A DNA stretch of 64,000 nt. Source: Acidobacteriaceae bacterium. GTDB lineage: Bacteria > Acidobacteriota > Terriglobia > Terriglobales > Acidobacteriaceae. Below, in pieces: positions 20,945-55,672 of this stretch; the stretch's first letter is position 1, and each line of letters begins with the position of its first letter. A model generated the notes under the pieces. That model was not told the origin of the DNA, searched no databases, and worked only from the letters and a program-made list of their open reading frames with translations. The position numbers and the translations under genes are program-made. The DNA lies in assembly GCA_035656855.1 (NCBI GenBank), contig DASRRO010000219.1:4340-68339 (forward strand), written 5' to 3'.

Positions 20945-20972
20945 GGGGATAGGGGTTAGGGGATAGGGGTTA
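20945..20972 (+). repeat. Heptad array (GGGGWTA)x4
   Basis: ggggata ggggtta ggggata ggggtta, starting 8 nt after the stop at 20937. Confidence 0.85.
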
Positions 20973-21188
20973 TGGTTCCGATGAACCCTGCCGCTGGCGG
21001 CGCGCCTCGGCAAGGCGATGGCGCAGGCGGCCTCGGCGGGAAATGACCAGAATCATGCGGGGTTCCGGCGCCACCAGGAGATGCTTGAGTGCAGGGCGTT
21101 CTAACTCCGTCATGGATATGTCATCCATGGGGCCGGTCGATGTGTCCGGTCACCCGCAGATCGGGCCGCGGTACGCAATAATAGGGCT

Positions 21189-22349
21189 ATGCAGCCAAAC
21201 GATTCCATGACGGATGTCCCCGGCGCGGTGGAAGAAATTAAGGCCGGCCGCATGATCATTGTCGTCGACGACGAGGATCGCGAAAACGAGGGCGACCTGA
21301 CGCTGGCGGCGGAGCACGTGACGCCGGAAGCCATCAACTTCATGGCGAAGTATGGGCGCGGGCTGGTCTGCCTGACGATGACCGAGGAGCGGGCCGACTA
21401 TCTGCGGCTGGGGCCGATGACGCAGCAGAACTCGTCGCGTTTTGGCACCGCCTTTACCGAATCGATTGAGGCGCGGGAAGGCGTAACGACGGGGATTTCC
21501 GCCTACGATCGGGCGCACACGATCAGAGTGGCAATCGATCCCCGGTCGACAGCGGCCGATCTGGCGCGACCCGGACATGTGTTTCCGCTGCGGGCGCGCA
21601 AGGGCGGCGTGCTGGTGCGGGCCGGGCAGACCGAAGCGTCCGTGGACCTTGCGCGGCTGGCAGGGCTGATTCCCGCAGGCGTGATCTGTGAGGTGATGAA
21701 GGACGACGGAACGATGGCGCGGGTGCCGGACCTGACCGCCTTCTGCCAGGAGCACGGGCTGAAGATGCTGACCGTGGCGGAGTTGATCCGGTATCGGCTG
21801 CAGCACGAGCGGTACATTGTGCGGGTGGCTGAGAGCCTGCTGCCGACCGAATGGGGCGAGTTCCGGATGATCGCCTATGAGAGCGAGGTGCATGGCGGGG
21901 AGAGCCATGTGGCGCTGGTGCGGGGCGATGTGAGCGGGACGGATCCGGTGCTGGTGCGGGTGCATTCCCGCTGTCTGGCGGGCGATGTGTTTGGGGCGAC
22001 GCTGTGCGACTGTCAACGGACGACACGCCAGTCGTTGAAGATGATTGCAGACGCGGGACGCGGCGCCTTCCTCTATCTGCACAACGCGGGCCGCGGATTC
22101 GAGATCGATCGGACGGGCGAGAAGCCGCGGGTCCTGTTCCATCGGGAGGCGCGAGCTCGCGAGGCTCACGCAGAGAGGCATCAGCGGATCCTGCGCGAGG
22201 TAGGGTTGGGTGGGCAGATCCTGGCGGATCTGGCGATTCACCGGATTCGCCTGCTGAGCAACACGCCGACGCATGTACCCGCACTCCAGGGCTTCGCTGT
22301 GGAGATTGTGGAGCAGGTACGGATTCCGGTAGAAGAGCCGGTCAGGTAA
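21189..22349 (+). CDS. ribBA: Bifunctional DHBP synthase / GTP cyclohydrolase II-like protein
   Basis: DHBP synthase half [20 protein letters not shown]...; second half keeps [16 protein letters not shown] zinc cysteines but diverges after them. Confidence 0.9.
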
Positions 22350-22376
22350 AACGGCAGCACAGATCGCTGGGAAAGA

Positions 22377-23795
22377 TCAGGCCGCGTCAGAGAGCGCGGC
22401 CTCTTCTTTTTGGGCGGCGCGGCTGCGGAATCGATAAAAGATCACCGCGATGAGATTGCTGAGCAGGATGGTGGCGATGATCTTGGCCGCGTACGTGCGC
22501 GCGCTGACGACATGCACGAACGGAAAAGCCGAGATGAACAGGCTGAAGAGCGTGGAGGCGAGGCCGACGGCGGATGTCCATTTGAGCCAGCGGGGCAGGG
22601 AACGGCGCAAGGCGGCGGCGCCAAAGAGCGGGATGGCAAACATGGCGACGTAGGCGACCTCGTAGTGAGTGAGACTGGCGTTGGTCAGGAGTTGGTACGC
22701 CTCCTGCGCGTGGACGCCCGAGCTGAAGAGCAGGATGAGCGCGAGGACCAGCACAGACGTGCAGGCGATGGAGTTGGTGGGGGTGCGACGGCGCGGATGC
22801 AGTCGAGTGAACCATTCGGGCACGAGGTGATTCCAGCCGGCAGCCATGGGCAGGCGGGTGACCCCGGTGAAGAGATAGCTGGTGGCTCCCAGCAGCCGCA
22901 TCTGCAGCAGAAGGATGGCGAGGATCGCCACGAGATTGCCGATGCCCGAGGCGCCCAGGGTCATGCGCATGGCCTGGGGAATGGGCGCGATGAAGTCGAT
23001 GTGGCCGCGGGGCACGAGGGCGACGATGGATGCGGTGCCGAGGATGAACATGGCGCAGATGACGGGCGAGGAGAGGATGACGGATTGTCCGATACTGCGC
23101 GCTGGATTGCGGCTTTCTCCGGCAAGGATAGCGATGTATTCGAGTCCGCAAAGGGCTCCGAAGAGCATCTGGCCGAAGAGCGCGAAGGTGCGGAGGTTGA
23201 GAGGCGGCGCGGCGACGGAGAAGGGTGTGTAGTGGATCGGTGCGTGGTGGGCGAGCGCCCAGAGCGGGAGCAGGATGAGTCCGGCGAAGACAATGAGGAT
23301 GGCAATGCCGCCGGTGTTGTGGATCCACTTACCGAGTTCCAGGCCGCGCAAGGCGGCGTAGGTGATGCCGGCCAGCATAAGGACGACGATGGCCAGGCAG
23401 AGGGGGCGATCCTCCGGCAGACCGCGAGCCGCGGGGCCGATGAGGTAGGAGATTTCCGTAGGGATGGCATAGAGGATGGTGGCGGTGACCGCGACCCCAT
23501 AGACCCAGAGGTTCCACGCAGTGAGGAAGCCGCCTAGATTGCCGAAGGCTGCGCGAGCCCAGACGTAGAGACCCCCTTCGAGGGGCATGGCGCGGTTGAG
23601 GCAGACGACCGAGCCGGCCATGGGAATGTAAAAGAGCAGCATGGCCGCGACCCAGATGAGCGATTGTGAGCGGCCGAGTCCGCCGGCAACGCCGACCCAG
23701 GAAGTGCCGACGACGCACAGGATCTGGGCGAGGACCAGATCGCGCAGCCGCAATGGACGATGCAGGCGATGCTCGGCCTCGGCGCGCTCGGGCAT
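22377..23795 (-). CDS. APC-family amino acid/polyamine permease
   Basis: 472 aa with about 12 hydrophobic segments; N-terminal LRDLVLAQILCVVGTSWVGVA pattern typical of APC transporters. Confidence 0.85.
   Translation of the reverse strand: MPERAEAEHRLHRPLRLRDLVLAQILCVVGTSWVGVAGGLGRSQSLIWVAAMLLFYIPMAGSVVCLNRAMPLEGGLYVWARAAFGNLGGFLTAWNLWVYGVAVTATILYAIPTEISYLIGPAARGLPEDRPLCLAIVVLMLAGITYAALRGLELGKWIHNTGGIAILIVFAGLILLPLWALAHHAPIHYTPFSVAAPPLNLRTFALFGQMLFGALCGLEYIAILAGESRNPARSIGQSVILSSPVICAMFILGTASIVALVPRGHIDFIAPIPQAMRMTLGASGIGNLVAILAILLLQMRLLGATSYLFTGVTRLPMAAGWNHLVPEWFTRLHPRRRTPTNSIACTSVLVLALILLFSSGVHAQEAYQLLTNASLTHYEVAYVAMFAIPLFGAAALRRSLPRWLKWTSAVGLASTLFSLFISAFPFVHVVSARTYAAKIIATILLSNLIAVIFYRFRSRAAQKEEAALSDAA
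22378..22410 (+). terminator. Terminator-like hairpin for ribBA, inside the 3' end of the convergent permease gene
   Basis: AGGCCGCG-tcagagag-CGCGGCCT followed by CTTCTTTTT. Confidence 0.5.
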
Positions 23796-23808
23796 GGTTC
23801 CGCCATAG

Positions 23809-23871
23809 TACAGGGTGCGGCGGACAGGGTACAGGGTACAGGTTGCGGGTTACAGGTTACGGGCTACAGTG
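23809..23871 (+). repeat. Heptad array, 9 units (TACAGGG-like)
   Basis: tacaggg tgcggcg gacaggg tacaggg tacaggt tgcgggt tacaggt tacgggc tacagtg. Confidence 0.85.
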
Positions 23872-24530: not shown

Positions 24531-24797
24531 AAGAAGCTCCTGAGTGACTGGCGATGCGCTGCTTCTATTATGCCGTGGAGATTTGCGCGGACAGGAAAAT
24601 GGAGGATTTGTCAGGGCCAGGATGCTGGGAACGCAACAGAGATAGCGGGCCGAGGGCAGACTTCGGTAATCGTGACTAGCGGTATCTTTAGCGCAACTGC
24701 CGAAGACCGGGCTTAAACTTGGTAGGTTCGCCGGATGTTTCCCGCCGGGTGTCGTGAGGGACTTCTGGCCTGCATCTCTTTCTGCAGGAGGCGTCTC

Positions 24798-26531: not shown

Positions 26532-26538
26532 GGAGAAC

Positions 26539-26566
26539 CCGGTAGCCGGTAGCTTGCGGCCCGTAG
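26539..26566 (+). repeat. Heptad array (CCGGTAG subfamily), 4 units
   Basis: ccggtag ccggtag cttgcgg cccgtag, starting 8 nt after the stop at 26531. Confidence 0.8.
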
Positions 26567-26707
26567 CGAGGAACTGAGGGCGAAAGCTATCATGTGCCTG
26601 CGCCTATGACCGTCTCCGGACGCTAATCCGGCTGAAGCCTGCTGACCATGCGGTGCGGGGCACCGGTCGGCAGAGATGCGTCGAACCATTCACTCCGGAG
26701 AAATCCA

Positions 26708-27211
26708 ATGACATTTCCAGATATTCTGACGCCCCGGCTGCGGCTGGTGGCGATAGCGCCCGCGCTTTTGCGGGTGGAAGGTCCCGAGCTCGAGGCATCG
26801 GTCGGTGCCGAGATTCCCGCGGCGTGGCCGCCGGAGCACTGGGAGCCTCACGTCTACGACTTCCTCGAAGAACTGTACGGCCGCGCGCCGTATGCAATCG
26901 CGTGGACTCGCTATGTGGTGACGCGGGCCGCGCCTCCCACGCTGATCGGAACGCTGGGCGGCTTCCCGCGCACGGAAACGGAGGCGGAAGTGGGGTATAG
27001 CATTCTGCCGCCGTGGCAAAGACAGGGGCTGGCGACGGAAGGTCTGCTGGCAGTGATGGAGGAGATCCGGCGGCGGGAGGAAGTGCAGACCTTCACGGCG
27101 CAGACGTTTCCGCATCTGCTGGCGTCAGTGCGGGTGCTGGAGAAGTGTGGGTTTGCGCTCACGGGCCAGGGCGACGAGGTAGGCACGATGCGTTATCGGC
27201 GCAAGAGGTGA
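26708..27211 (+). CDS. GNAT-family N-acetyltransferase (RimJ/RimL-like)
   Basis: TPRLRLVAI N-terminus; acetyl-CoA motif WQRQGLATEGL; C-terminal VRVLEKCGF. Confidence 0.75.
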   Translation: MTFPDILTPRLRLVAIAPALLRVEGPELEASVGAEIPAAWPPEHWEPHVYDFLEELYGRAPYAIAWTRYVVTRAAPPTLIGTLGGFPRTETEAEVGYSILPPWQRQGLATEGLLAVMEEIRRREEVQTFTAQTFPHLLASVRVLEKCGFALTGQGDEVGTMRYRRKR

Positions 27212-27279
27212 TCCCGGCGCCGATTCAGGTAAGCTGGAGGGACTTTGATTTGATCCCTGGGACGGAAAGGAATTCCGGC

Positions 27280-27855
27280 ATGAAGCTGGCAAAACTGGCA
27301 GGTTTGGTTCTGGCTGCGGCGGCGCCGCTGGCGATGGCGCAAACCTCGACGTGGAAGGCGGACCCATACCACAGCGAGGTGGACTTCACGGTGAAGCACC
27401 TTGGCATCACGAATGTGCACGGGCGATTCGGCAAGGTGGACGCCACGCTGGAGTGGAACGAGGCGGATCCGACGAAATCGACCGTCAACGCGACTATCGA
27501 TGTGACGGGCGTGGACACAGGCGTGACGCCGCGCGACAACGATCTGAAGGGCGATCATTTCTTCAATGTGGCGCAGTTTCCGACGGCGACCTTCGTGAGC
27601 ACGAGCGTGGAGAAGACCGCGTCGGGCCTCGAAGTGAATGGGAATCTAACCATCAAGGGCGTGACCAAACCCGTGGTGCTCGAGGTTCAGGGACCGTCTG
27701 GACCGGTGAATGGGATGGGCAAGAAGCCACATATCGGATTCGCGGCGACCACCAACGTGAAGCGGACGGATTTCGGGATTGCGGCGGCAATGCCGTCCAC
27801 GATGGTGAGCGACGACATTCATCTGGAGATCGATCTGGATTTCGCGAAACAGTAG
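27280..27855 (+). CDS. YceI-family polyisoprenoid-binding periplasmic protein
   Basis: Signal peptide ...PLAMAQ; DPYHSEVDFTVKHLGITNVHGRF and LTIKGVTKPV motifs. Confidence 0.85.
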   Translation: MKLAKLAGLVLAAAAPLAMAQTSTWKADPYHSEVDFTVKHLGITNVHGRFGKVDATLEWNEADPTKSTVNATIDVTGVDTGVTPRDNDLKGDHFFNVAQFPTATFVSTSVEKTASGLEVNGNLTIKGVTKPVVLEVQGPSGPVNGMGKKPHIGFAATTNVKRTDFGIAAAMPSTMVSDDIHLEIDLDFAKQ

Positions 27856-27907
27856 GGCACTCCCACGTCTGCCAAAGGCGGGCAGGCATGGGGCACTCGA
27901 GGAAGCA

Positions 27908-27937
27908 GGCGGCCCGCGCGGGCCGCCTTTTCTTTTT
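27908..27937 (+). terminator. Rho-independent terminator after the yceI-like gene
   Basis: GGCGGCCC-gcgc-GGGCCGCC followed by TTTTCTTTTT; overlaps the stop codon of the convergent gene. Confidence 0.7.
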
Positions 27938-28391
27938 AGCGTGCCGAACAGGTTTTGCGGCCGGTATCGGCAATGGCGGCGATACGCCACTGGCCGTTGA
28001 CGCGGACGAGGCTGAACAGGTCAGTGCCGCAGTGATCGACCTTGCCGTCACTGAGGAAGTCGAAGGGCGCCCAGACCACGGCGAGGTCGTGGTCGATGCG
28101 GACGAGGGGATGATGGATGCGCTCCTCGATGCGCATGGTGCCGGGCTTCGCGACGCGGGCGGCAAAGTCATCGAAGGACATCTGGACGGGCTTGCCGTCG
28201 CGCATCAGGGTGAGCGATCCACCGGGCAGCAGAGGCGCGCGAATCGCGTCGGCGTCACGGTGAGCCATGCCGTCGAAGAGAGCCTGCACCGGAGCGAGAA
28301 CGGCCTGGTCTTCCGGGGACGCGGCGCGGAGGGCAGGGCTGCAGGCAGCGAGCAGAAGGAGCGCGAGGACGAGTTTCGTCATGGCGGACAT
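27936..28391 (-). CDS. Secreted NTF2-like (SnoaL/DUF4440-like) protein
   Basis: Signal peptide MSAMTKLVLALLLLAACSPA; about 130-aa alpha+beta cone pattern ending ...FSLVRVNGQWRIAAI. Confidence 0.55.
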   Translation of the reverse strand: MSAMTKLVLALLLLAACSPALRAASPEDQAVLAPVQALFDGMAHRDADAIRAPLLPGGSLTLMRDGKPVQMSFDDFAARVAKPGTMRIEERIHHPLVRIDHDLAVVWAPFDFLSDGKVDHCGTDLFSLVRVNGQWRIAAIADTGRKTCSAR

Positions 28392-28402
28392 TCTAACGGC
28401 AG

Positions 28403-28423
28403 CCGGTAGCCGATGGCCCGTAG
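28403..28423 (+). repeat. Heptad array (CCGGTAG subfamily), 3 units
   Basis: ccggtag ccgatgg cccgtag; 12 nt upstream of the minus-strand ATG at 28391. Confidence 0.7.
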
Positions 28424-28489
28424 CTCGTCGTGCAAATCCGGAACAAGTGGATGGCGGACAGCATCCGGGCGGCGGACCGCGGTGGGATC

Positions 28490-29839
28490 TCACCGTGGGC
28501 TGAGGCGGCGTTTGGCTTTGAGAAGGACGTCGTCGGCTTCGGGATGGTCGTCCCAGTAGTCGAGACGAATGCGGCCATCGGGAAGCTGGCTTACGGTGGC
28601 GGGTTCGGCGCTGGCGGTAACGTACCATCCTGCGGGAAGAACAACGGCATTGCGGGGACGGCCAAGGCTGCGGTCGAAGACCAATTCATCGCCGTCAAGA
28701 TGGTAGCTGACGGGAGCGGTGTAAGTTTCGAGGATGCGCAGGCGCAGCGACTGGCCGGATTGCACGGCGGGAAAGGGAATAACGACCACGCTGTCTTTGG
28801 GATCGGCGGTCTCGCCGGTTTTGATCCCGGAGGCGGTCAGCTGGGCGCCGGTCATCTCTTCGGTTTTCAGTTGCTCGCCGGTGTCGAGGATGTAGGCCGA
28901 CGGGCGAGTGGCGACGCTGCCTGTGCGGACGACGTTCGCGTAGCCGTCGATGCCGAGGCGCGACTCAGTGTAGTCGTGGTACAGGGCGAAGGCGTGGGTC
29001 TCAGGCTGCTGGAGGAAGTAGACGATATCGCGGTCCTGATGGGCGCGCTGGGAGAGGCGGGCGCGCTCCGGTTCACCCTGGAAGGGCGATTCCCAGCTGA
29101 CCTGGCGGGTGAGGGCTTTGGGCAGCGCGGCCGCGCCGGTTTGCGCATCTTTGACGGCGCGAATCACGAGGGGCGCTTCACCGGCGCCGGCGTGGAGGAA
29201 GCTGACGGCGATGCGGCCGTCGGACTCGGTCAGAATCTGCGAGGGGACGCTGAGGCGGACGATTTCGTAGCCGGGCGGCAGGACGACCTGGTTGCGGCGG
29301 ATGCCGAGAGGGCGGTCGAAGACGATCGCGTCGCCGTCGGTGTGGTAGCTCTTCGCATCCTTATAGGTCTTGACGATGAGGATGCGAGCCTGTCCATGCT
29401 GCGGAACGGGACGGGCGAGAGTGACCTTGATGTAATCCATCGAAGGATCCGCGTCTGCCATGAGCGGGTCTTTGCGGGCGTCGGCGCCGCTGACGACGGC
29501 GAAGGCGAGCGGCTTGCCGGTCATAGCGTCGTCAACACTCTCGTCGCTGGCGACGCTGCCTTTGCGGATGGGGTTGTAGAAGACGGTGGCGCCGGCCGTG
29601 GTGGCGGTGACTTCGTAGTAGATTTTGAAACTCGCGGTTTCAGGTGAGAGGAGTTCGTAGCGGGTGTACTCGTCCGTCTCGGTCTGGGTTCCGGTGGCGT
29701 TCGGCAGGTAGACGGCGTCACGCGTGTCGGGCTGAGCGGCCGGCGCGGTTTGCGCTGGAGACGCGCAGGCGACGGAAAGGGCGAGACAGGCGGCCAACGG
29801 CAGGGCAGATCCAGCTGGATGGAACATGTGCAGGAGCAT
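28490..29839 (-). CDS. Secreted hypothetical protein with internally duplicated ~190-aa domain
   Basis: Signal peptide; the two halves align (e.g. RILIVKTYKDAKSYHTDGDAIVFDRPLGIRRNQVVLPPGY versus RLRILETYTAPVSYHLDGDELVFDRSLGRPRNAVVLPAGW). Confidence 0.6.
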   Translation of the reverse strand: MLLHMFHPAGSALPLAACLALSVACASPAQTAPAAQPDTRDAVYLPNATGTQTETDEYTRYELLSPETASFKIYYEVTATTAGATVFYNPIRKGSVASDESVDDAMTGKPLAFAVVSGADARKDPLMADADPSMDYIKVTLARPVPQHGQARILIVKTYKDAKSYHTDGDAIVFDRPLGIRRNQVVLPPGYEIVRLSVPSQILTESDGRIAVSFLHAGAGEAPLVIRAVKDAQTGAAALPKALTRQVSWESPFQGEPERARLSQRAHQDRDIVYFLQQPETHAFALYHDYTESRLGIDGYANVVRTGSVATRPSAYILDTGEQLKTEEMTGAQLTASGIKTGETADPKDSVVVIPFPAVQSGQSLRLRILETYTAPVSYHLDGDELVFDRSLGRPRNAVVLPAGWYVTASAEPATVSQLPDGRIRLDYWDDHPEADDVLLKAKRRLSPR

Positions 29840-29889
29840 ACGGGAAAGCCGCCCGAGCCGCCACCTGAGGTGGCTGATCCCAGACCGCT

Positions 29890-30327
29890 TCAGGCGGTTG
29901 CGGCGGTCGGAAACTTTTCGCAGTGGGCCTTGAGGCTGCGCGCTTCGGTCTTCACGTATTCCGCGATGCGTTTGGCGTACATGCTGCCGAGAATCGCGCC
30001 GAGAAGCCCTTCTGTGGAGAAGGAGAGCTCGACTTCCGTAGTGGCGCTGTCGCCGATGAGGCGATGGTCGGCGATCATGGTGGCGCCAGGGGCTTTCTGG
30101 ATCCAGGTGAAGGCCTTATGCGGTGCCAGCTCAACCACCTCGTAAACAGCGGGACGCAGTTTGGGCTGGGTGATGCGGTAGCGGGCGCCGAGACGGAGTC
30201 CGTCGGGAGTAAGGGGCTGGACGTGCTGGACGGTCGGGGTCCAGGTGGGCCAGCGCTCGACGTCGGCAAGGACGCGCCAGATGTCAGCGGGAGTGGCCTG
30301 GATGATGACGCGCTCGACGGTCTGCAT
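29890..30327 (-). CDS. SRPBCC-family protein
   Basis: MQTVERVIIQATPADIWRVLADVERWPTWTP... is a typical polyketide-cyclase/SRPBCC N-terminus; AAGGAGG RBS. Confidence 0.75.
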   Translation of the reverse strand: MQTVERVIIQATPADIWRVLADVERWPTWTPTVQHVQPLTPDGLRLGARYRITQPKLRPAVYEVVELAPHKAFTWIQKAPGATMIADHRLIGDSATTEVELSFSTEGLLGAILGSMYAKRIAEYVKTEARSLKAHCEKFPTAATA

Positions 30328-30402
30328 GGAAAACTCCTCCTTCGCAGCACATACGCATAGAGGGCGGCAGCGGTTCCCTGAACTGGCCAGTCAGGCCGGG
30401 AA

Positions 30403-30511
30403 GGGGTACCCCCCCTGGGTCGAGGCATGCCGATTGCGTTGATTCTGCGGGACCTGCAGGGTAATACCCTGAGGGTATTACCTTCCGCGAGCCACTCTTG
30501 TCATTTCAAAG
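30403..30511 (-). repeat. Four-block intergenic module (R3) upstream of the SRPBCC gene
   Basis: Read on the minus strand: CTTTGAAAT (30511-03), AAGGTAATACCC-tca-GGGTATTACCCT (30484-58), CGCAGAATC (30449-41), GGGGGGGTACCCC (30415-03). Confidence 0.65.
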
Positions 30512-30555
30512 ATCGAAGCCGATTGCCGGCCTGGGCCGGGGCTTTGCGTCGCAAT

Positions 30556-30582
30556 GAAAAAGCCTCGCGGCTGGCGAGGCTT
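30556..30582 (-). terminator. Rho-independent terminator of the peroxiredoxin-like gene
   Basis: Minus strand reads AAGCCTCGC-cagc-CGCGAGGCTT followed by TTTT. Confidence 0.75.
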
Positions 30583-32300: not shown

Positions 32301-32328
32301 CAGCGGACAGCGGACAGCGTACAGGCGC
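32301..32328 (+). repeat. Heptad array (CAGCGGA-like), 4 units
   Basis: cagcgga cagcgga cagcgta caggcgc; fills the 35-nt gap between two convergent stop codons. Confidence 0.75.
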
Positions 32329-32333: not shown

Positions 32334-32768
32334 TCAGGGGCTCAGGATGCGGTCGCCGAGGTCGGGAGCGATGCGGCGGAAATGAGCGACGTTCAGAGTG
32401 TAGACGCGTGCGCATTTGGTTTTTCGTGCCGCCTGCATGTGAAGGGCGTCAAAGATCATGCCGCCCGTCCAGCCCTCAGCGGCGCAATGGCGCAGAACGT
32501 CGGAGTAATCTGTGCGACTCAGGGAAATGATCTCAAAGGAGCCGAGCACGTTCTGCTGCAGGCTGCGCCAGGCATCCGCTGAGGTGATGCGCGGCTGAAA
32601 GGGAGTGCGCGTCAAGACGGAATAGGCCTCGGCGAGGCCATGGGCGGCGATCACCGGGGTCCAGCGGCTGACTCTGATTTTGCGAAACAGCTCCAGAACG
32701 TTCGCCTTATGCGGGTGGATGAGCGCCGTGTCCGCAATCACGATACTTGTATCGAGGTAGACGTTCAC
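32334..32768 (-). CDS. vapC: PIN-domain toxin (VapC)
   Basis: VYLDTSIVIA, GLAEAYSVL, MIFDALHMQ acidic residues; 4-nt overlap with the upstream antitoxin. Confidence 0.85.
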   Translation of the reverse strand: MNVYLDTSIVIADTALIHPHKANVLELFRKIRVSRWTPVIAAHGLAEAYSVLTRTPFQPRITSADAWRSLQQNVLGSFEIISLSRTDYSDVLRHCAAEGWTGGMIFDALHMQAARKTKCARVYTLNVAHFRRIAPDLGDRILSP

Positions 32769-33028
32769 CAGCCGCCAATTTTCCGAATCCGCTCCTCGCG
32801 CATATCGTCCACAAGAGTGTTCCAGTGAATACCCGCGGGAGCGCCACCGGCGTAAACCAGGTGACCATTTTCGTCATGTCTCCAGACCGATTCCGGGGAA
32901 GGCGATTTGAGCAGAATCCCTTCGGGGCTCTCAACGATTTCAAGTGCCGTGTCAGGGCGCAGGCCCAGGCGATCGCGGATCGGCTTGGGAACGACGATGC
33001 GCCCGGCTTTGTCGATGGAGACTTGCAT
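32765..33028 (-). CDS. vapB: AbrB/SpoVT-family antitoxin (VapB)
   Basis: MQVSIDKAGRIVVPKPIRDRLGL... swapped-hairpin motif; start taken at ATG 33028. Confidence 0.8.
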   Translation of the reverse strand: MQVSIDKAGRIVVPKPIRDRLGLRPDTALEIVESPEGILLKSPSPESVWRHDENGHLVYAGGAPAGIHWNTLVDDMREERIRKIGGW

Positions 33029-33050
33029 GTGCCTATTATGCCATTCGTCG

Positions 33051-33064
33051 ATGGTAATTACCAT
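33051..33064. promoter_or_regulatory. 14-bp perfect palindrome ATGGTAATTACCAT flanked by CCATTCG repeats (putative vapBC operator)
   Basis: Lies 23-36 nt upstream of the vapB start; CCATTCGtcgATGG and CCATTCGacaATGG dyads on each side. Confidence 0.5.
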
Positions 33065-38896: not shown

Positions 38897-41698
38897 TTAC
38901 TTCACGCCGTAGACATCGATTTCGCCCTGGGGATTGGTGACGGTGGTGAGGTCGTGTCCGGTGGAGATGTAGACCTTGCCGTTGGCCACCACAGGCGAGG
39001 TGAATTTGATGCCATAGCCGGGCGTATCCGCGGAGTTCTGGCCGCTGTCCCAGAGCTCATTGGGATAGCTGGCCGCGGAGAAGGCGCGGAGCGTGGCATC
39101 GGTGGGCGGTTGGGTGGTGCCGGGATTGCTGGGATCGCTCTGGGTGTTCTGGAGGGGGAAGCCCTCGTCGATCATCCACACGATGCCGTCGTTGGTGCCG
39201 TTGGCGGAGATGAAGGGGCTGGTGCCGCGGGTGCCCTGCTGGACCGCCGGCGTGGTGTCGGCGAAGGGCGATAGTGTTCCGGAGTATTCGAACTGGCGCA
39301 CGCCGCCGGGGGCGGTGGAGGACGTGGGCGTGACGCCGAGGTAGACGTAGTTGTTGAAGTACGCGGAGGTTCCGAAGATCTCGTAGGAAGTGACGTTAGC
39401 GTTGTTGACGCCGCTGGAGTCAGTGCAGGAACTGGGGTAGGTGCTGCCGTTGGTCAGGCCTGCGCCCCAGACCTGCATCTGCAGGGCGCCGGAATCGTTG
39501 GAGGTTTCGTGGCCGAGATTGCCGCTGTTGACCAGGTACATGGTGCCGGTTTTGCCGCCTGCAATCAGGGTGGTGGTACCGGGGATGAGGATGAGACCGC
39601 CTGCAGCGAGATCAGAGTCGTTGCAGTCCATGTACTGGTAAATGCTGGGCGTGAAGTAGTCGCTGGGCTGCATGGTGCCGGTGGCGCCGGAGGTGGGAGT
39701 GGGCGGGAACTTCAGCACCGAGTCGGCGAAGGCACTGGTGCCGTTCCACGGACCGTTGCCGGTGGTGATGTAGACGTTGCCGGAGCTGTCGGCGACGGGG
39801 CCGCCTGAACCCATCCAGACTCCGCCTGCGCTGGCGTAAGTGCCTTCGCCGTTGAGGGCGGTGCTGGAGTTGAAGACGCCGACCTGGGCGAGGCTGGAAG
39901 CGTTATAAGCAACGAGCCAGCCGCTGTGGCAGCCACCGAACCCGATGTAGACGTTGCCATTGGCGAGGAGCAGAGCGGCGCGCTGAATGCAGGAGGTATC
40001 GAGCGTCTGGATGCCGCCAACCGAAGCGCTGTTGGTGGCGGAAACCGAAACGTTGAGAGTAACGGGGCCGCCGAATTTCTCAGCGCCGGTGGTGATGTCG
40101 AGAGCGTGCAGGCGGAAGAAGCCGGCGCTGCCCGAGGCAATTTGCGCGGAGACGACATAGAGGGTCCCGGTGGAGGGATCGATGACCGGGGTTGAGGTGA
40201 CGCCTTCATACGGCTTGATGGGCGCGGCGGTGAGGGGGGTTTCGCCCGACTGCAGGAGCGAGACCTGCCAGAGCGGCGAGCCGGCGGTATCGGCGTCGAA
40301 GGCGTAGACACTGTCGTGCTCGGTGGCGACGTAGAGGACGTTGTGCTTCGCGCTGTTGATGGTGACGCCGGACATCAGCAAGGGCTCGGCGTAGGCGTAG
40401 CCGTCGATGGGCAGCGAGAAGAGCTTGCCGAAGGTGGCCGGGACGACGTTGGACGGGGTGAGGATTGTCTCGTTGGCGTTGAGGCCGCTGCGGTTGGCAT
40501 CGACGTGCCAGGTGGTGATGTTCACCCCGGACACCGCTGCGGTGATGGTCGCGGTGGTATGGCCGCTGACGGTGTTCGCCGTGGCCGTGATGGTGGTGGT
40601 TCCGGTGGCGGCGGCGGTGGCGAGGCCGGAGCTGTTAATGGTGGCGACGGAAGTATCGGAACTGGTCCAGGTGGCTGTGCTGGTGATGTTGCCGGTGGTG
40701 CTGTCGGTGTAGGTGGCGGTGGCCGTGAACTGCTGGGTGGCTCCCGTGGCAAAGCTCGGGTTAGCCGGCGTGACGGCGATCGAGGAAATGGTCTTCGCGG
40801 TGACAGTGGCGGTCGTCGAACCGGCGATGCCGGTGAGAGTGGCGGTGATGGTGCTGGTGCCCGCCGCGACACCGGTGGCCAGGCCGGAGGCGTTAATGGT
40901 CGCGGCGGAGGTGTTGGAACTGGTCCACGTCACCGTTGAAGTGACGTTTTTGGTCGAACTGTCACTGTAGGTAGCCGTTGCGGTGAATTGTTGGGTGGCT
41001 CCGACGGCGACACCGGGATTGGCCGGTGTGACGGCGATGGATGTGAGCGTCGGCGCCGTCGGCGCGGGGACTGTAAGGGTGGTTGTCCCGGAGACGCCGC
41101 TGAGCGCTGCGGTAATAGTCGCGGATCCCTGTGCGACACCGGTGGCAAGGCCCGCGGCATCAATGGTGGCGACGGCGGTCGCGGAGCTGGTCCATGTCGC
41201 CGTGGTAGTGACATTTTTAGTGGAACCGTCGCTGTAAGTAGCCGTGGCCGTGAACTGCTGCGTGGCTCCGGTGGTCACGGTGGGATTAGCGGGAGTCACC
41301 GCGATGGAAGAAAGCGTCGGGGCTGCGGCGGCAATCGTGAAAGCGCTGTTGCCGTTCACGCCGCTCAGTGAGGCCGTGACGGTGGCCGATCCGGCGGCGA
41401 CAGCGGTGACCATTCCGCCGGAATTGACGGTGGCGACCGACGCGGCGCTGCTGGTCCAGCTGACGGAGGTGGTGACGTTGGCCGTGGAGCCATCGCTGTA
41501 ACTGGCTGTTGCTGTGAGCTGCTGGGTAGCGCCGACGGCAATGCTGGGAGTGGCGGGAGTGACGGCCAGGGCGGTGACCGATTTTGCAACAAGCCGAGGT
41601 CCGGAGGAGCCACCGCATCCACTGAGAAGCGCGATCACGCTAAGGGAAAGAAAAATCACAGCGGACGACCAACAGTGGCGGCGTAAATGGGGGCTCAT
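38897..41698 (-). CDS. Lipoprotein with four Big_2 (bacterial Ig-like) domains and a C-terminal PQQ-like beta-propeller
   Basis: AGGAG RBS; lipobox LLSGC; four ~88-aa units (IAVTPANP..GATQQFTATATYSD..T..VT...TWTSS); propeller motifs such as LYVATEHDSVYAFDADTAGSPLWQ. Confidence 0.8.
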   Translation of the reverse strand: MSPHLRRHCWSSAVIFLSLSVIALLSGCGGSSGPRLVAKSVTALAVTPATPSIAVGATQQLTATASYSDGSTANVTTSVSWTSSAASVATVNSGGMVTAVAAGSATVTASLSGVNGNSAFTIAAAAPTLSSIAVTPANPTVTTGATQQFTATATYSDGSTKNVTTTATWTSSATAVATIDAAGLATGVAQGSATITAALSGVSGTTTLTVPAPTAPTLTSIAVTPANPGVAVGATQQFTATATYSDSSTKNVTSTVTWTSSNTSAATINASGLATGVAAGTSTITATLTGIAGSTTATVTAKTISSIAVTPANPSFATGATQQFTATATYTDSTTGNITSTATWTSSDTSVATINSSGLATAAATGTTTITATANTVSGHTTATITAAVSGVNITTWHVDANRSGLNANETILTPSNVVPATFGKLFSLPIDGYAYAEPLLMSGVTINSAKHNVLYVATEHDSVYAFDADTAGSPLWQVSLLQSGETPLTAAPIKPYEGVTSTPVIDPSTGTLYVVSAQIASGSAGFFRLHALDITTGAEKFGGPVTLNVSVSATNSASVGGIQTLDTSCIQRAALLLANGNVYIGFGGCHSGWLVAYNASSLAQVGVFNSSTALNGEGTYASAGGVWMGSGGPVADSSGNVYITTGNGPWNGTSAFADSVLKFPPTPTSGATGTMQPSDYFTPSIYQYMDCNDSDLAAGGLILIPGTTTLIAGGKTGTMYLVNSGNLGHETSNDSGALQMQVWGAGLTNGSTYPSSCTDSSGVNNANVTSYEIFGTSAYFNNYVYLGVTPTSSTAPGGVRQFEYSGTLSPFADTTPAVQQGTRGTSPFISANGTNDGIVWMIDEGFPLQNTQSDPSNPGTTQPPTDATLRAFSAASYPNELWDSGQNSADTPGYGIKFTSPVVANGKVYISTGHDLTTVTNPQGEIDVYGVK
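40535..41578 (-). repeat. Tandem ~264-nt coding repeats (four Big_2 units)
   Basis: Recurrent GCCGTGAACTGCTGGGTGGCTCC-like blocks at about 264-nt spacing; in frame within the CDS. Confidence 0.8.
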
Positions 41699-42117
41699 CG
41701 ATTCTCCTGGACGGGTATTACACGGACGCTTGATCGGGCGCACACCAGGGCAGGGCTGGACCTTTGGTGAGCGCGTATACAGCAGAAAGGGGTCCGTCGC
41801 ACCTTCGACGGCCGGCGGGAACCTGCGGAAGAAAAAAGCCAAAGCAAAGTCAGCGAACAGCGATAAGCCATTCAAAAGCGTTCTTTCAGGAGCGTGGGTT
41901 GTAAACCTGTATTGATTCGAATTCGCTCCTGCAAACCATTAGTCGAGAGCCAGGCTGGGTCTGGTTGTATGGCCCCGAACAAAAGATGGCCATTCAGTTA
42001 TCGATCTTTGGTAATAGGTTACTTAACGGTTACCTGTACTGGGGCCAGGCGGTCAAGGCTCAGCTGTGGAAAACACGGATTTTAATGCGGATGAAAAGTG
42101 GAGGCGATTTTTCCGCG

Positions 42118-46514: not shown

Positions 46515-46515
46515 C

Positions 46516-47916: not shown

Positions 47917-47980
47917 GGGCTTGAGAATATCAACAGCAGCTTAAGGAAGGCTGAAGGAGGCGGTTCGGACCGGCCCCGGG

Positions 47981-48733: not shown

Positions 48734-48836
48734 GGGAGCCCTCTCAGACGCCCCCATGATGGACCGAAAGGTCCGGGATGGGAAGAACGAAATTTGAGCC
48801 GGCGTTTACGAGAGGCACACCGGTGTCGCGTCGCCT

Positions 48837-49979: not shown

Positions 49980-50011
49980 GGTGCGGAGGCCTTTCCCCTG
50001 GAATTTGGGAC

Positions 50012-50109
50012 CAGCGTACAGGGTTCAGGGTGCAGCGTACAGGGTTCAGGGTGCAGCGTACAGGGGGGAAGAAGAACAGGGTACAGGGTGCAGGTCACAG
50101 GTTGCAGCC
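50012..50109 (+). repeat. Heptad array, 14 units, with 21-bp higher-order repeat
   Basis: cagcgta cagggtt cagggtg appears twice in full (50012-50053), followed by cagcgta and further degenerate heptads up to tgcagcc. Confidence 0.9.
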
Positions 50110-50175
50110 AATGAGAATCAGGACCAGGGTTGTTCATGACAGGACGGCGTGTATCGCTACTTATAATCAGAACTC

Positions 50176-50667
50176 ATGACGACGATTCGATGGGCGCGGC
50201 CGGAAGATGCGGCGCTGATTCTCCAGTTTGTCCGGGAGCTGGCTGAGTATGAACGCGAGCCGGACGCGGTGACGATCCTTGAAGCCGAGTTGCTGCGCGA
50301 TGGCTTTCCCGCCGACGGCGGAGAGCGCTATTTCGAGTGCCTGATTGCCGAGGAGGATGGCGAGTCGGCTGGATTTGCCCTGTTCTTTCCGGTGTACTCC
50401 ACCTGGAAGGGAAGGGCGATGCATCTGGAGGATCTCTTTGTGCGGCCGCGGTTTCGGGGGCGGGGCATCGGGAAGGCTCTGCTGACGAAGGTGGCGGCCG
50501 TGGCGGTGGAACGGGGGTGTGCTCGGTTCTTCTGGCACGTGCTGGACTGGAACACGCCGGCAATCGAGTTTTACCAGTCGCTGGGCGCAGTGCCGCTGGT
50601 CGACTGGACGCGGATGGAGATTTCCGGCGAACCGCTGCGAGCCCTGGGGCGCGAAGCAGCCCTATGA
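50176..50667 (+). CDS. GNAT-family N-acetyltransferase (diamine acetyltransferase-like)
   Basis: IRWARPEDAALILQFVRELAEYE; acetyl-CoA motif RPRFRGRGIGKALL; AIEFYQSLGA. Confidence 0.85.
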   Translation: MTTIRWARPEDAALILQFVRELAEYEREPDAVTILEAELLRDGFPADGGERYFECLIAEEDGESAGFALFFPVYSTWKGRAMHLEDLFVRPRFRGRGIGKALLTKVAAVAVERGCARFFWHVLDWNTPAIEFYQSLGAVPLVDWTRMEISGEPLRALGREAAL

Positions 50668-52013: not shown

Positions 52014-52102
52014 GGCACCCGCGTAACCCATTGAAGCCAAAGCGGGCTCAAACGGGGCACCCGGGGACGTACCTGAACTGACCTGCTAACCTTAAACCAG
52101 TC

Positions 52103-52797
<695 letters not shown>

Positions 52798-52801
<4 letters not shown>

Positions 52802-53592
52802 TCGATATCCATCACCACTTGCTGTATGCGACGGACGACGGGCCGAAGGACATTGACGGCTCCGTCGCGCAGGCCGAGGCGGCGGCCGCCGACGGCATCA
52901 CTCATATCGTGTGCACGCCGCACGCCAACGATACCTTTGAGTTCAACCCGGAGAAGAATCGCGAGCGTCTGGACGCGATCCAGGCGCGGGTCGGCAACGA
53001 TGTGCGGCTGGGTCTGGGCTGCGATTTTCACCTCTCCTACGAGAACATCGAGGACGCACTCAAACATCCGACGAAGTTCACCATCAATCAGGGGAAATAT
53101 CTGCTGGTGGAGTTTGCCGAGTTCATGATCCCGCAAAGCATCGGCGACACGTTTTACGAGTTCACGGTGCGAGGAGTGCGGCCGATCATCACCCATCCGG
53201 AACGGAATCCGATCCTGCAAAAGGAACCGGAGCGGATGATGGAGTGGATGCGGACCGGCTGTCTGGTGCAGATCACCTCAGCCTCACTGGGAGGGCGATT
53301 CGGGAAGCGGGCGCAGGCCATGGCGTGGAATCTGCTGGAGCGGAACTGGGTGCACTTTATCGCCACCGACGCGCACAATCTGGAGAGCCGGCGTCCGGCA
53401 TTGCGGCCCGCCTACGCAGGTGTGGAGAAGCGGTTTGGAGCCGAAACGGCGGAGCGGCTGTGCGTGGAAAACCCGCGGGCGGCCTTCAATAATCAGCCCT
53501 TGCCTCCCCAGCCCGAGCCGGAAGGCGTCTACGTCTATGAAGACGATCGGGGCAAGCCAAAGGGCCTGATGGCCCGGCTGTTTGGGAAGTAG
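52798..53592 (+). CDS. PHP-family protein-tyrosine phosphatase (CpsB/YwqE-like)
   Basis: [39 protein letters not shown] metal-binding motifs; ATGA overlap with purQ. Confidence 0.8.
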
Positions 53593-53648
53593 CCGAACCT
53601 GCCTCGCTGAGAAGGCGTCCCGCTCCGAACGTCGATCAACCGGCCGGA

Positions 53649-54056
53649 CTACTGAATGCCGGCTGCGTTCAGGTGATCCGAATAGGCTTTGTCCGACTCC
53701 CGGATGTGGTGGACCACCCACTGGCGGACGAAGTTGAGCAGAGAGACGGAGCTGGCCGAGCGCCCTTCCTCCAGGGCCCGCTTGTACTGTTCCACGTCCT
53801 CCATCAGCTTTCTGTGCTGCTCCCGGTGCGCAGGCAGTCCGGGATAACCGGTTTGCCGCATCAGGACTTCTTCCTGAAGGAAGTGGGTGCGGGTATAGAC
53901 GGCGAGTTGTTCCACCGTGTCGCGGAGCACGTCATCCCCCTTACCGACGCGCATGGCTTCGGCAAGGCCGTTGATGATCTCAAACAATTTCTCGTGCTGT
54001 TCGTCCATTTGCCGCACGCGTACGCTGTACGATTCATTCCAGGCGAAGATCGCCAT
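53649..54056 (-). CDS. Bacteriohemerythrin
   Basis: WNESYSVRVRQMDEQHEKLFEIIN...HFLQEE...HREQHRKLM...WVVHHIRESD: His/Glu/Asp iron ligands in hemerythrin spacing. Confidence 0.85.
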   Translation of the reverse strand: MAIFAWNESYSVRVRQMDEQHEKLFEIINGLAEAMRVGKGDDVLRDTVEQLAVYTRTHFLQEEVLMRQTGYPGLPAHREQHRKLMEDVEQYKRALEEGRSASSVSLLNFVRQWVVHHIRESDKAYSDHLNAAGIQ

Positions 54057-54144
54057 CGAGGACTCTCCCGAAAGCAGGCACTGTCCCGGTTATCGGCGCA
54101 AGGATCGGGAAGATGAGCGGGAGGGAAGAGTCCGTTGTGGCGAC

Positions 54145-54870
54145 CTAAAGGCCGAGGCCGCCGTCGACGCTCAGAATCTGACCGGTAATAAAGTGCGGGC
54201 CGGCAGCAAAAAACAGGACCGCGGCGGCCACGTCCTGCGCAGTGCCGTTGCGTTGCATGGGCGTACGGCGGGCGAAGTGCTCGTATTCCTCGGCCACTTC
54301 GCCGTTGACGATCATGCCGGGGGCGACGCAGTTGACGCTGACCTCCGGGGCAAAGGCTTTGGACATGGTCTGGGTGAGCATGTGGAGAGCGGCTTTGGAG
54401 GTGCAGTAATGGGCGTGCGTGGGCCAGGGATGCAATCCGCCAAGCGAGCCGATGTTGATGATGCGGCCGCGCGCGGCCTTCAGGTGTGGATACGCCGCCT
54501 GGGCGGTGAGGAACGGAGCGCGGGTATTGGTCTCAAACATCGCATCCCATTGCTCCACCGTGATGCTTTCCAGAGCCGCGGTTTCGTAACGGCCGGCATT
54601 GTTGACGAGGATGTCGATGCGGCTGAACTGATCGGCGATGGCGTCGATGGTGGCGTGGATCTGGCTGGGATCGCGGAGGTCGGCTCGGTAGGCGGCGGCG
54701 AGGACGCCCCGCTCGGCCAGTTCGGCGACGGTGGTCTGGGCGTCTGTTTCGGATTCCCGCCAGGTGATGGCCACATGAGCGCCGGCATCGGCCAGAGAAA
54801 GAGCCAGGGCGCGCCCAATGCGCTTCGCCGCGCCGGTCACAACGGCCACCTGGCCGTGAAGAGGCTTCAT
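54145..54870 (-). CDS. SDR-family oxidoreductase
   Basis: VAVVTGAAKRIGRA (TGxxxxIG), NNAG, YCTSKAA (YxxxK). Confidence 0.88.
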   Translation of the reverse strand: MKPLHGQVAVVTGAAKRIGRALALSLADAGAHVAITWRESETDAQTTVAELAERGVLAAAYRADLRDPSQIHATIDAIADQFSRIDILVNNAGRYETAALESITVEQWDAMFETNTRAPFLTAQAAYPHLKAARGRIINIGSLGGLHPWPTHAHYCTSKAALHMLTQTMSKAFAPEVSVNCVAPGMIVNGEVAEEYEHFARRTPMQRNGTAQDVAAAVLFFAAGPHFITGQILSVDGGLGL

Positions 54871-54969
54871 CAGTCGATTCTAACGTCCAGATCCTTACAG
54901 GATCGAGGGCGCGGGACAACGGAGGAACGGTCCGGACGCATCCCAAAGTCCGAACGAAGGACCCCCTCC

Positions 54970-55635
54970 ATGCGAAGAGCATTCGTGTTGGCCGTCATTA
55001 CAGGCTGCACGCTCGGCGTGTGCGCAGGCTGTGCCGGGAGCCGCGCCGGGCATCTGGCGCACAGCGGAGCGGCGGGAATTGCGCCCGACGATGCCGCCCT
55101 CCATCCCAATCCCAACGCTCCGTATATCCTGGCAGGCGGAACGCCGCGGCTGGTGGCGCGGGCGACGGCTGACGACGCGGCCAATGCAGGACCGTGCGAT
55201 CCCGAGGTGCTCTCCATAGAAGAAATTGCGGGCGATACCAGCGGAGTTTTCCGGTCGGTGAAGCTGGCCTTCATGAATCGCGGCCCGGTGCCCTGCCGAC
55301 TGGGTGGTTATCCGGAGGTGGCGCTGCTGGATTCCCAGGGCGAGCGGATCGGCAACATCAACACCCAAAGAGTCAGCTCAACCGAAGTGCTGGCCGAGTT
55401 TGGAAAGCAGCTGCCGCCCGGAGGCAAGGGGCCTTCCCCGGCGGTCACGCTGATGCCGCATGAGGTCGCGGCTTTTCAGGTGGTCTGGACCACGGGAACT
55501 GAATGTTCGCGGGTAGCCCGCATTCAGGTCGCGGCTCCAGGCAGCCGCCGGACCTTCGGCATTACTCAGCCTATGAAGGTCTGCACCGGGCAGATTCAGG
55601 TGACAGAGCTGCGGCTGGATGAGGGGGCCGTTTAA
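54970..55635 (+). CDS. DUF4232-like lipoprotein
   Basis: Lipobox VITGC; FMNRGPVPCRLGGYPEVALLDSQGERIG and conserved Cys pattern; only the last 221 codons of the 572-aa track ORF. Confidence 0.6.
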   Translation: MRRAFVLAVITGCTLGVCAGCAGSRAGHLAHSGAAGIAPDDAALHPNPNAPYILAGGTPRLVARATADDAANAGPCDPEVLSIEEIAGDTSGVFRSVKLAFMNRGPVPCRLGGYPEVALLDSQGERIGNINTQRVSSTEVLAEFGKQLPPGGKGPSPAVTLMPHEVAAFQVVWTTGTECSRVARIQVAAPGSRRTFGITQPMKVCTGQIQVTELRLDEGAV

Positions 55636-55637
55636 AG

Positions 55638-55672
55638 CAGGGTGCAGGGTGCAGGATGCAGGGTGCCGGGGC
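55638..55672 (+). repeat. Heptad array (CAGGGTG), 5 units
   Basis: cagggtg cagggtg caggatg cagggtg ccggggc; starts 3 nt after the stop at 55635. Confidence 0.85.

Follow-up and report, generated by a model that had tools for sequence, protein, structure and literature searches.

Among the long simple-sequence repeats (SSRs) of many free-living bacteria, those with heptanucleotide units are the most abundant, and they are poorly understood. In a 64-kb stretch of one contig (DASRRO010000219.1) from the metagenome-assembled genome (MAG) of an Acidobacteriaceae bacterium, here called the window, 7 short tandem arrays with units of 7 nucleotides (nt) had been noted at gene junctions. We refer to these arrays by number as A1 (starting at position 20945), A2 (23809), A3 (26539), A4 (28403), A5 (32301), A6 (50012), and A7 (55638). 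The initial annotation did not assign them to any described repeat class, and the question raised by the locus is what the arrays are and why they are located where they are. We consider it probable that they belong to a lineage-wide population of heptanucleotide SSRs of an already known kind, which have been resized by slippage and confined by selection to gene junctions, and that A6, at the least, is built upon or has been drawn into a promoter-proximal element that is conserved.

Period-7 arrays and their placement in the window

The window has a GC content of 62.6%, and about 91% of it is coding and about 9% non-coding. A gene model was built from Pfam matches, the gene calls in related genomes and the reading of open reading frames (ORFs), and the start and stop codons were verified. 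The closest relatives of the malic enzyme encoded in the window were found in Terracidiphilus and in Acidobacteriaceae MAGs, with protein sequence identities of 79% to 83%. The arrays were detected with Tandem Repeats Finder (TRF) and with a sliding autocorrelation, in which at least 16 of 21 bases were required to match the base located 7 nt ahead and for which second-order Markov simulations of the window served as controls.

The autocorrelation identified 6 segments with period 7 in the window, as compared to 0.07 in the Markov controls, and no segments with periods of 4, 5, 8, 10, 11, or 13 nt at the same threshold. A1, A2, A5, A6, and A7 are statistically solid period-7 tandem repeats according to these analyses (Table 1); A5, for example, passed the autocorrelation threshold and had 94% matches in TRF. 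A4 passed at 15 of 21 only, a threshold at which the Markov controls yield 0.9 hits per window, while A3, for which TRF reported just 2.1 perfect copies (score 30), was missed even at 14 of 21. These 2 arrays are marginal, at the level of noise, and taken singly they are not separable from chance. The previous description of 7 heptad arrays thus holds for 5 of them. The unit sequences had been given correctly, and the strict 7-nt register had been overstated for the degenerate arrays, in which the matches amount to 70% to 76%.

All of the 5 robust arrays were located in the non-coding fraction of 9% (p ~6e-6), and each of the 7 arrays was found at most 32 nt from a gene end. No array was situated inside a gene body according to the gene model and the inspection of start and stop codons, as had been proposed. 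The only overlap with coding sequence was that of A2, which covers the last 22 nt of the gene for a HAD hydrolase, corresponding to 6 codons and the stop codon with one extra base, and the statement that the arrays are non-coding apart from 6 codons in one of them was thereby confirmed.

A G-rich/C-rich strand asymmetry had been ascribed to the arrays in general. The GC skew was strong in A1, A2, A6, and A7 (0.37 to 1.0), whereas the values of 0.07 to 0.10 in A3, A4, and A5 were similar to the window average of +0.11. G residues are locally enriched on the forward strand of the window in any case, and the shared G-richness of that strand is therefore not an independent feature of the arrays. 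There is also a polarity in their placement. Read along the G-rich strand, 6 of the 7 arrays were nearer to the 5' than to the 3' neighboring gene, whichever direction the 5' gene was transcribed in, and A2 spans the whole gap between its neighbors. For the 4 arrays in the window with room to move, the combined probability by Fisher's method was p=0.036. In metagenome contigs of high GC content, 14 of 16 arrays showed this placement (p=0.002, rough gene calls), and the polarity rule was thereby reproduced in 2 independent data sets. The gene calls in these contigs were based on GC content at third codon positions (GC3), since spurious ORFs cross the arrays in high-GC DNA if the longest ORF from stop to stop is selected.

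It was also noted that the GC skew was +0.21 to +0.24 over positions 24001-48000. From about 28.5 kb much of the window is encoded on the reverse strand, with a sense strand that is markedly C-rich, and gene orientation and replication-related skew are confounded within this segment.

Table 1. Heptad arrays A1 to A7 and the conserved leader next to A6. Units are written on the forward strand unless otherwise indicated.
Feature	Position	Strand	Units or motif	TRF result	Setting
A1	20945-20972	+	GGGGATA GGGGTTA x2	20945-20969, period 7 x3.6, 88% matches; period 14 x2.0, 100%	Begins 7 nt past TGA of phospholipase-B-like gene (19465-20937, +)
A2	23809-23871	+	About 9 units TACAGGG/TACAGGT (CCTGTAC on gene strand)	23808-23869, period 7 x8.9, 70% matches	Fills 54-nt gap from HAD hydrolase stop (23850-23852, -) to amino-acid permease start (23795, -), both genes from Pfam; 13 nt from permease start
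A3 (marginal)	26539-26566	+	CCGGTAG CCGGTAG CTTGCGG CCCGTAG		Begins 7 nt past malic enzyme stop
A4 (marginal)	28403-28423	+	CCGGTAG CCGATGG CCCGTAG		20 nt upstream of start 28382 (-); product with signal-peptide-like N-terminus (ORF reading)
A5	32301-32328	+	CAGCGGA CAGCGGA CAGCGTA CAGGCGC	32301-32324, period 7 x3.4, 94% matches	Fills 35-nt gap between convergent stops 32298 (+) and 32334 (-, PIN toxin gene)
A6	50012-50109	+	CAGCGTA/CAGGGTT/CAGGGTG in sub-arrays 50012-50065 and 50076-50109	50012-50065, period 7 x7.7; period 21 x2.6, 100%; second stretch 50076-50094	Divergent gap of 196 nt from DUF7544 start 49979 (-) to GNAT start 50176 (+; GNAT-GidA-like operon); model from relatives' gene calls
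A7	55638-55672	+	CAGGGTG CAGGGTG CAGGATG CAGGGTG CCGGGGC	55637-55670, period 7 x4.9, 88% matches	Begins 2 nt past TAA of DUF4232 gene (+), 54-nt convergent gap; ends 17 nt short of stop of convergent PMT_2 glycosyltransferase gene (55690, -)
DUF7544 conserved leader and last heptad	49980-50018	-	TACGCTG (reverse complement of 50012-50018)		Contains -10-like hexamer TACGCT

Period 7, unit families, and turnover in related genomes

To place the arrays in a broader context, TRF was run on 80 loci of in total 1.44 Mb that surround the malic enzyme gene in relatives, mostly members of the Acidobacteriaceae (individual loci are denoted by L numbers). Here, 21 arrays with at least 3 copies had a period of 7 nt, as compared to 1 to 5 arrays at each of the periods 4, 5, 8, 10, and 11. 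With a requirement of at least 4 copies, period 7 was the commonest period, with 14 arrays versus 0 to 5 at these other periods. Likewise, a 5-mer was found 3 times at a spacing of 7 nt in 239 cases, versus 22, 6, 36, and 5 cases at spacings of 6, 8, 9, and 10 nt, respectively. The strong arrays in this set included GGATCAG x20 (L003), AGAGAAC x11 (L045), CAGTGAA x11 (L062), ATTCCCT x7 (L012), and AGCTAAA x6 (L016). Most of them were located at gene junctions by the rough gene calls, with 3 apparent exceptions that were flagged and inspected. The scan of relatives that had been suggested as a check thus showed that period-7 arrays are present there, and they were not found in gene bodies as far as the rough calls can tell.

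The arrays were also compared at orthologous junctions. A6 was present in L081, L082, and L083, in which the adjacent DUF7544 protein was 91%, 94%, and 81% identical to its homolog in the window, and the array in the window differed by one extra block of 21 nt, corresponding to 3 units, and by small indels. A2 contained 8 to 9 units, as compared to 4 units in L084 (permease 93% identical), and the alignment included a clean gap of 7 nt. The A7 position, directly after the stop codon of the DUF4232 gene, contained CAGGGTG x4 in the window and CAGGGAT x3 in L082. A1 was absent behind the same stop codon in L084, with a neighboring permease that was 93% identical in protein sequence, and A2 was absent upstream of the permease ortholog in L085 (84% identity). 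No orthologs of A3, A4, and A5 were found, and the synteny around the malic enzyme gene was not kept in L001 to L005.

Unit counts at orthologous junctions hence differ, as had been anticipated: A2, A6, and A7 vary, and A1 is missing in L084. The arrays grow and shrink by single units or by blocks of several units (7 and 21 nt), in the manner of replication slippage, and the turnover of A1, A2, A6, and A7 represents the dynamics expected of slippage-prone SSRs.

A few rearrangements at these junctions were recorded in addition. In L084, a PhdYeFM antitoxin and PIN toxin gene pair (5465-6143) is located between ribBA and the gene for the phospholipase-B-like protein. The counterpart in the window (20973-21188) consists of A1 and an orphan ORF of 52 amino acids (20970-21128, -). 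Furthermore, the PIN-domain gene beside A5 (32334-32768) is preceded by a small upstream ORF (32765-33064). The DUF7544 ortholog in L082 (9507-10633) is split into 2 overlapping ORFs of 164 and 210 amino acids, which represents either a frameshifted pseudogene or an assembly error in the ENA contig.

The main unit family in the window, CTGNACS on the reverse strand (CAGGGTN/CAGCGTA on the forward strand), is common to A2, A5, A6, and A7. The 10-mer CTGTACSCTG was found 7 times in the window, as compared to 0.12 expected occurrences, and all copies were located inside A2, A5, and A6 on the reverse strand; the copy in A5 is of the form CTGTACGCTG. Arrays with a CAGGG core were identified in 8 of the relatives' loci, of which 4 were non-orthologous (L003, L012, L054, and L062) and 4 were orthologous to the A2, A6, or A7 junctions (L081 to L084). 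The pattern (CAGGGNN)x3CAGGG was observed in at least 120 stretches in metagenomes, on contigs with GC contents of 41% to 75%. Among 20 independent arrays detected without reference to their sequence by TRF in the window and in the relatives, 16 contained CAG or CTG in the unit, as compared to an expected number of 4.7, and none of 5,000 simulations reached 16.

The longest heptad array in the set was found in L003, an Acidobacteriaceae MAG with a malic enzyme 83% identical to that of the window, in which about 20 GGATCAG (CAGGGAT) units cover 143 nt (6411-6553) between divergent genes. In L161 (3601-3759, -), 4 arrays of 4 units each (CAGGGAT/CAGGGGT) follow one another over about 160 nt, with 9 to 37 nt between them, which recalls the preference for 4 units reported in Xanthomonas and Nostoc. 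Finally, L076 from an Acidobacteria-related metagenome bin contained AACTGAC x4.7 (263-295), one base off the TAACTGA repeats of other bacteria.

The A6 core and hexamers upstream of start codons

To examine the array between the divergent DUF7544 and GNAT genes, we compared A6 with the orthologous arrays in 6 relatives, in which the protein sequence identities ranged from 60% to 94%, including L209 (80%), L210 (66%), and L211 (60%). A core of the form CTGTACGCTG-N11-CTGTACGCTG-nTCCCA was kept in 5 to 6 of the 7 species. The 55 nt closest to the DUF7544 start codon were 93% to 97% identical to those in the relatives, whereas the identities at third codon positions were 67% to 81%. Measured against these synonymous positions, the A6 core appears to be conserved far beyond the neutral expectation.

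The last heptad of A6 merges into the conserved leader of the DUF7544 gene (Table 1), and in L211 the hexamer TACGCT is located 9 nt before the DUF7544 ATG. A2 similarly runs up to a conserved TACTAT (23805-23810, reverse complement), located 9 nt before the permease ATG, and in L085, where the array is missing, this hexamer is kept as CACTAT. On the other side of the A6 gap, a TATAAT (50162-50167, +) was identified 8 nt before the GNAT ATG at 50176, and at the same distance in L081, L082, L210, and L211, with a shift of one base in L083. Its position suggests that the GNAT-GidA-like operon is transcribed into a leaderless mRNA. The geometry is shared with the TACTAT of the permease gene and the TACGCT of the DUF7544 gene in L211, and on the basis of sequence we take TACGCT, TATAAT, and TACTAT to be putative -10 boxes that may belong to leaderless mRNAs, with TACTAT and TACGCT at the exact ends of A2 and A6, respectively.

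These results provide 2 experimental handles, namely the CAG/CTG-containing core in most arrays and the start-proximal units of A6, which run up to a -10-like hexamer and are conserved far more strongly than synonymous sites.

Known heptamer repeats and the weighing of alternatives

The arrays were compared with heptameric repeats described previously. The G-rich heptamers GGGAATC in Xanthomonas and GGGGA(C/T)T in Nostoc PCC 7120 occur throughout the genome, with an excess in non-coding regions (Rehm et al. 2015, PMC4692102). Most of them are found within 50 bp of a start codon, in which case the G-rich strand is antisense, or of a stop codon, in which case it is sense, and of the flanking ORFs the 5' one is the nearer irrespective of its orientation, a rule that was left unexplained (PMC4692102). 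Repeats at the same junctions in Xcc and Xac differ in length and sequence, their neighbors are of mixed function, and the repeats form G-quadruplexes in vitro (PMC4692102). The arrays in the window share with them the head-to-tail 7-nt units, the strand asymmetry, the bias toward non-coding DNA, the 5'-side rule, the change in length and sequence at the same junctions and the mixed neighbors. A1, with 4 units of GGGGATA/GGGGTTA, is nearly of the Nostoc type and has the 4 G-tracts needed for a quadruplex. The differences are that the host is a member of the Acidobacteriaceae, that the main unit is CAGGGTN/CAGCGTA (CTGNACS), and that A6 is located between divergent genes, a position that was under-represented in the study by Rehm et al. 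(2015). Furthermore, the arrays other than A1 fall outside the quadruplex-forming subclass defined there.

As summarized in PMC4679880 and PMC4692102, Mrazek, Guo and Shah (2007) found that heptanucleotides are the most abundant long SSRs (units of 5 to 11 nt) in many genomes, that long SSRs are typical of the large GC-rich genomes of non-pathogens, and that non-triplet units are kept out of genes, and proposed polymerase slippage on a contact of about 7 nt as the cause. Our set of arrays is similar in that period 7 dominates among non-triplet periods and in that non-triplet units are absent from coding DNA. The arrays thus display the features of heptameric intergenic SSRs that were tested, namely, in the 5 robust arrays, at least 3 units beyond chance expectation, and further an excess of period 7, a bias toward non-coding DNA, variation at orthologous junctions, and 5'-side polarity.

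Heterocystous cyanobacteria contain short tandemly repeated repetitive (STRR) heptamers such as CCCCAGT, TTGGTCA, and CAACAGT. Repeats with the unit TAACTGA have been described in Beggiatoaceae, Cyanobacteria, and Bacteroidetes (MacGregor 2015, PMC4679880), and proteins of the cold-shock-domain, S1 or CsrA type have been suggested as their binding partners. Both types are similar to the arrays studied here in being intergenic tandem heptamers that often occur just before start codons, in 2 to tens of copies and with a patchy distribution across taxa, and most of their units contain CAG or CTG, as do 16 of the 20 arrays examined here. They differ in unit sequence and host lineage, and several arrays in the window follow stop codons rather than precede start codons.

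Effects on nearby genes have been described for a few heptads. Deletion of heptamer repeats was reported in a preprint to alter the behavior of the recO promoter in Nostoc (bioRxiv 10.1101/2022.06.06.494920). For Haemophilus influenzae, 7-bp repeats are reported upstream of hmw1A and hmw2A (PMC8262952, PMC12721329), and for Vibrio cholerae the ctxAB promoter is reported to contain TTTTGAT heptads (bioRxiv 10.1101/2021.05.14.444153). The similarity consists of 7-nt units situated beside promoter elements and the start codon, or between them, in a strain-variable number, and A2 and A6 occupy such a position. The hmw and ctxAB heptads differ in that they are reported as single loci in host-adapted pathogens, for which regulators or phase variation have been demonstrated, whereas the arrays in the window occur at many loci beside housekeeping genes and genes of unknown function. 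The idea that the arrays form an undescribed repeat class has to be abandoned, as heptameric intergenic SSRs are already covered by the study of Mrazek (2007) and by the STRR, TAACTGA, and GGGAATC/GGGGA(C/T)T families (PMC4692102, PMC4679880). What is new is the host family, the CTGNACS/CAGGG unit family, the CAG/CTG enrichment, and the A6 core, which persists in relatives with as little as 60% protein identity and runs up to a -10-like hexamer. No paper joining Acidobacteria with intergenic heptamer repeats was found in our literature search, and the Acidobacteriaceae, a dominant soil lineage, are here added to the hosts of such repeats. For annotation purposes, the lesson is that heptad arrays mark gene junctions and should not be labeled as a new repeat class or as CRISPR-like.

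If the arrays are known SSRs, slippage would create and resize them, and selection would purge them from coding sequences because a step of 7 nt shifts the reading frame. As about 91% of the genome is coding, the surviving arrays would then be expected to sit near a start or a stop codon. Most copies are probably neutral or act as weakly modulatory spacers. A2 and A6, which appear to abut conserved -10-like hexamers 9 to 33 nt before a start codon, may at least have arisen on the promoter or leader of the neighboring gene or have been co-opted into it, and the number of units could tune the expression of that gene.

Several observations weigh against this explanation. The preference for period 7 is not explained by purely neutral slippage, and neither are the recurrence of one unit family at several loci, the presence of CAG or CTG in 16 of 20 arrays, the polarity rule, and the persistence of the A6 core in relatives as distant as 60% protein identity. 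In addition, all statements about this genome rest on 64 kb of a single MAG contig, the gene calls in most of the relatives' loci are rough and GC3-based, and the evidence for slippage comes from comparisons between contigs of relatives.

The arrays could alternatively be dedicated cis-regulatory elements, either as platforms for a protein with a 7-nt footprint on DNA or RNA, or as promoter or operator modules in which the number of units sets the expression level. Such a role is in line with the conservation of the A6 core in most of the species compared, with the ends of A2 and A6 at TACTAT and TACGCT, with a CAG/CTG-enriched unit family that is common to several loci and placed in an orientation-dependent manner, and with the precedents reported for recO in Nostoc, hmw1A in H. 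influenzae, and ctxAB in V. cholerae. However, the units vary among loci (GGGGWTA, CAGCGGA, CAGGGTG), A1 is gone in L084, A2 is gone in L085 and the unit of A7 is wholly replaced in L082. The neighboring genes are functionally unrelated according to Pfam, the consensus promoter scan scored no canonical sigma-70 promoter in the A6 gap, and a promoter role is impossible for 3 arrays, since these are placed where 2 genes converge or shortly behind a stop codon. We regard dedicated regulatory elements as an unlikely explanation. A wider version of the idea is a cross-phylum class of functional, orientation-specific cis-elements around a CAG/CTG-containing 7-mer, which would either be read by a protein with a heptad footprint or be embedded in promoters with a geometry that survives the gain and loss of units. 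The 5'-side rule, the CAG/CTG enrichment and the conservation of the A6 core would then be signatures of function rather than of mutation bias, although we consider this version, too, to be improbable, and a little more speculative.

It had also been suggested that the arrays have G-quadruplex (G4) potential and that their complementary strands, being C-rich and G-poor, resemble Rho-utilization sites; as elements of either type they could act as hairpin-free terminators or attenuators at gene ends. The quadruplex part of this proposal applies to A1, a textbook motif with 4 tracts, which was the only one of the 7 arrays that matched a canonical G4 pattern in a regular-expression search (4 tracts, loops of at most 7 nt) and the only one for which G4-aware folding predicted a quadruplex (-36.3 vs. 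-11.3 kcal/mol). A2, A6, and A7 qualify only if loops of 11 nt are allowed, and A3, A4, and A5 have no tracts of 3 G residues. Most of the arrays are not quadruplex motifs because CAGGGTN/CAGCGTA does not give 4 closely spaced tracts of this kind, and 9 of the 10 canonical motifs in the window were located in ordinary genic sequence. Many units in the relatives, such as AGCTAAA, AGAGAAC, and CAGTGAA, are not G-rich, and G4 formation is therefore not the common denominator, despite its demonstration in vitro for the related GGGGA(C/T)T repeats. As for Rho, A5 and A7 occupy convergent gaps that lack a classical terminator with a hairpin and a T-run, and the predicted folding of the C-rich strands is weaker in A2 and A6 than in shuffled controls (z = +1.05 and +1.16). 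On the other hand, the transcribed strand is G-rich at some arrays and C-rich at others, and the C-rich RNA of A2 and A6 would form the 5' leader of the following gene and not a 3' end. Arrays of 21 to 35 nt also seem short for a Rho-utilization site. Taken together, these findings make quadruplex or Rho-dependent elements a very unlikely explanation for the set.

The least probable of the explanations, and one to which we attach almost no weight, is that the arrays represent chance low-complexity stretches or artefacts of metagenome assembly. A3 and A4 are indeed at noise level, and the window derives from a MAG, in which the DUF7544 protein is 100% identical to the database entry P0001 (MAG TPA Acidobacteriaceae bacterium). 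Against this stand the large excess of period-7 segments over the Markov controls and the presence of arrays at the same junctions in independently assembled JGI, ENA, and NCBI contigs, and for A1, A2, A5, A6, and A7 the explanation is refuted.

The known SSR class thus remains the preferred assignment, and a number of more specific candidates were rejected. No dyad symmetry was detected in the arrays, and their RNA folding was similar to that of shuffled sequences (z from -1.4 to +1.4), in agreement with the previous view that they are not hairpin terminators. With no inverted repeat and such folding, intrinsic terminators and palindromic elements of the repetitive extragenic palindromic (REP) type were ruled out. 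No terminator-like site was scored at any of the arrays; sites with a hairpin and a T-run were found elsewhere in the window, at 27907, 22379, and 30582. A CRISPR array was also ruled out, since the units are contiguous 7-mers rather than repeats of about 24 to 48 nt with unique spacers between them, and the earlier conclusion drawn from the lack of spacers was correct. The only match in an Rfam scan of the whole window was a tRNA, in agreement with ARAGORN, and no known RNA or riboswitch was identified at the arrays in that scan. The neighboring genes are metabolic or without assigned function, which argues against phase-variable contingency loci.

The DnaG primase of E. coli starts synthesis at 5'-CTG, and the arrays were considered as primase sites. 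This idea was dropped. The strand with CTG is the C-rich one, which, judging from a GC skew that is confounded by gene orientation, is unlikely to be the lagging-strand template.

A3 and A4 are alike apart from one 7-nt unit and were considered as direct repeats of the kind that flank integrated elements (att-like). However, a 22-nt match with 2 mismatches and a free gap is by our own estimate expected by chance in 64 kb, and the 2 arrays flank just a part of a 3.3-kb insertion. This segment (26532-29889), between the malic enzyme gene and the gene at 29890, contains genes for a GNAT protein, a YceI-like protein and a small protein with a signal-peptide-like N-terminus, as well as an ORF of 449 amino acids with no match in Pfam. 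Since the malic enzyme gene and the gene at 29890 are adjacent in L002, L004, and L005, the segment is a lineage-specific insertion. A3 is located at its left end and A4 inside it.

Two other features of the window were noted. The intergenic segment at 30460-30482 contains an inverted repeat, GGTAATACCC-TGA-GGGTATTACC, with a stem of 10 bp, for which TRF lists a period of 14 nt. Its left arm overlaps with the unit CAGGGTA, a near-complement of which is found in the right arm. Furthermore, an ORF of 992 amino acids (38897-41875, -) has a GC content of 0.60 at second codon positions, which is higher than that at first positions (0.52), and contains internal repeats of 6 and 12 nt, including those in the region 40581-40709 (GTGGCG x7); this ORF may encode a repetitive protein.

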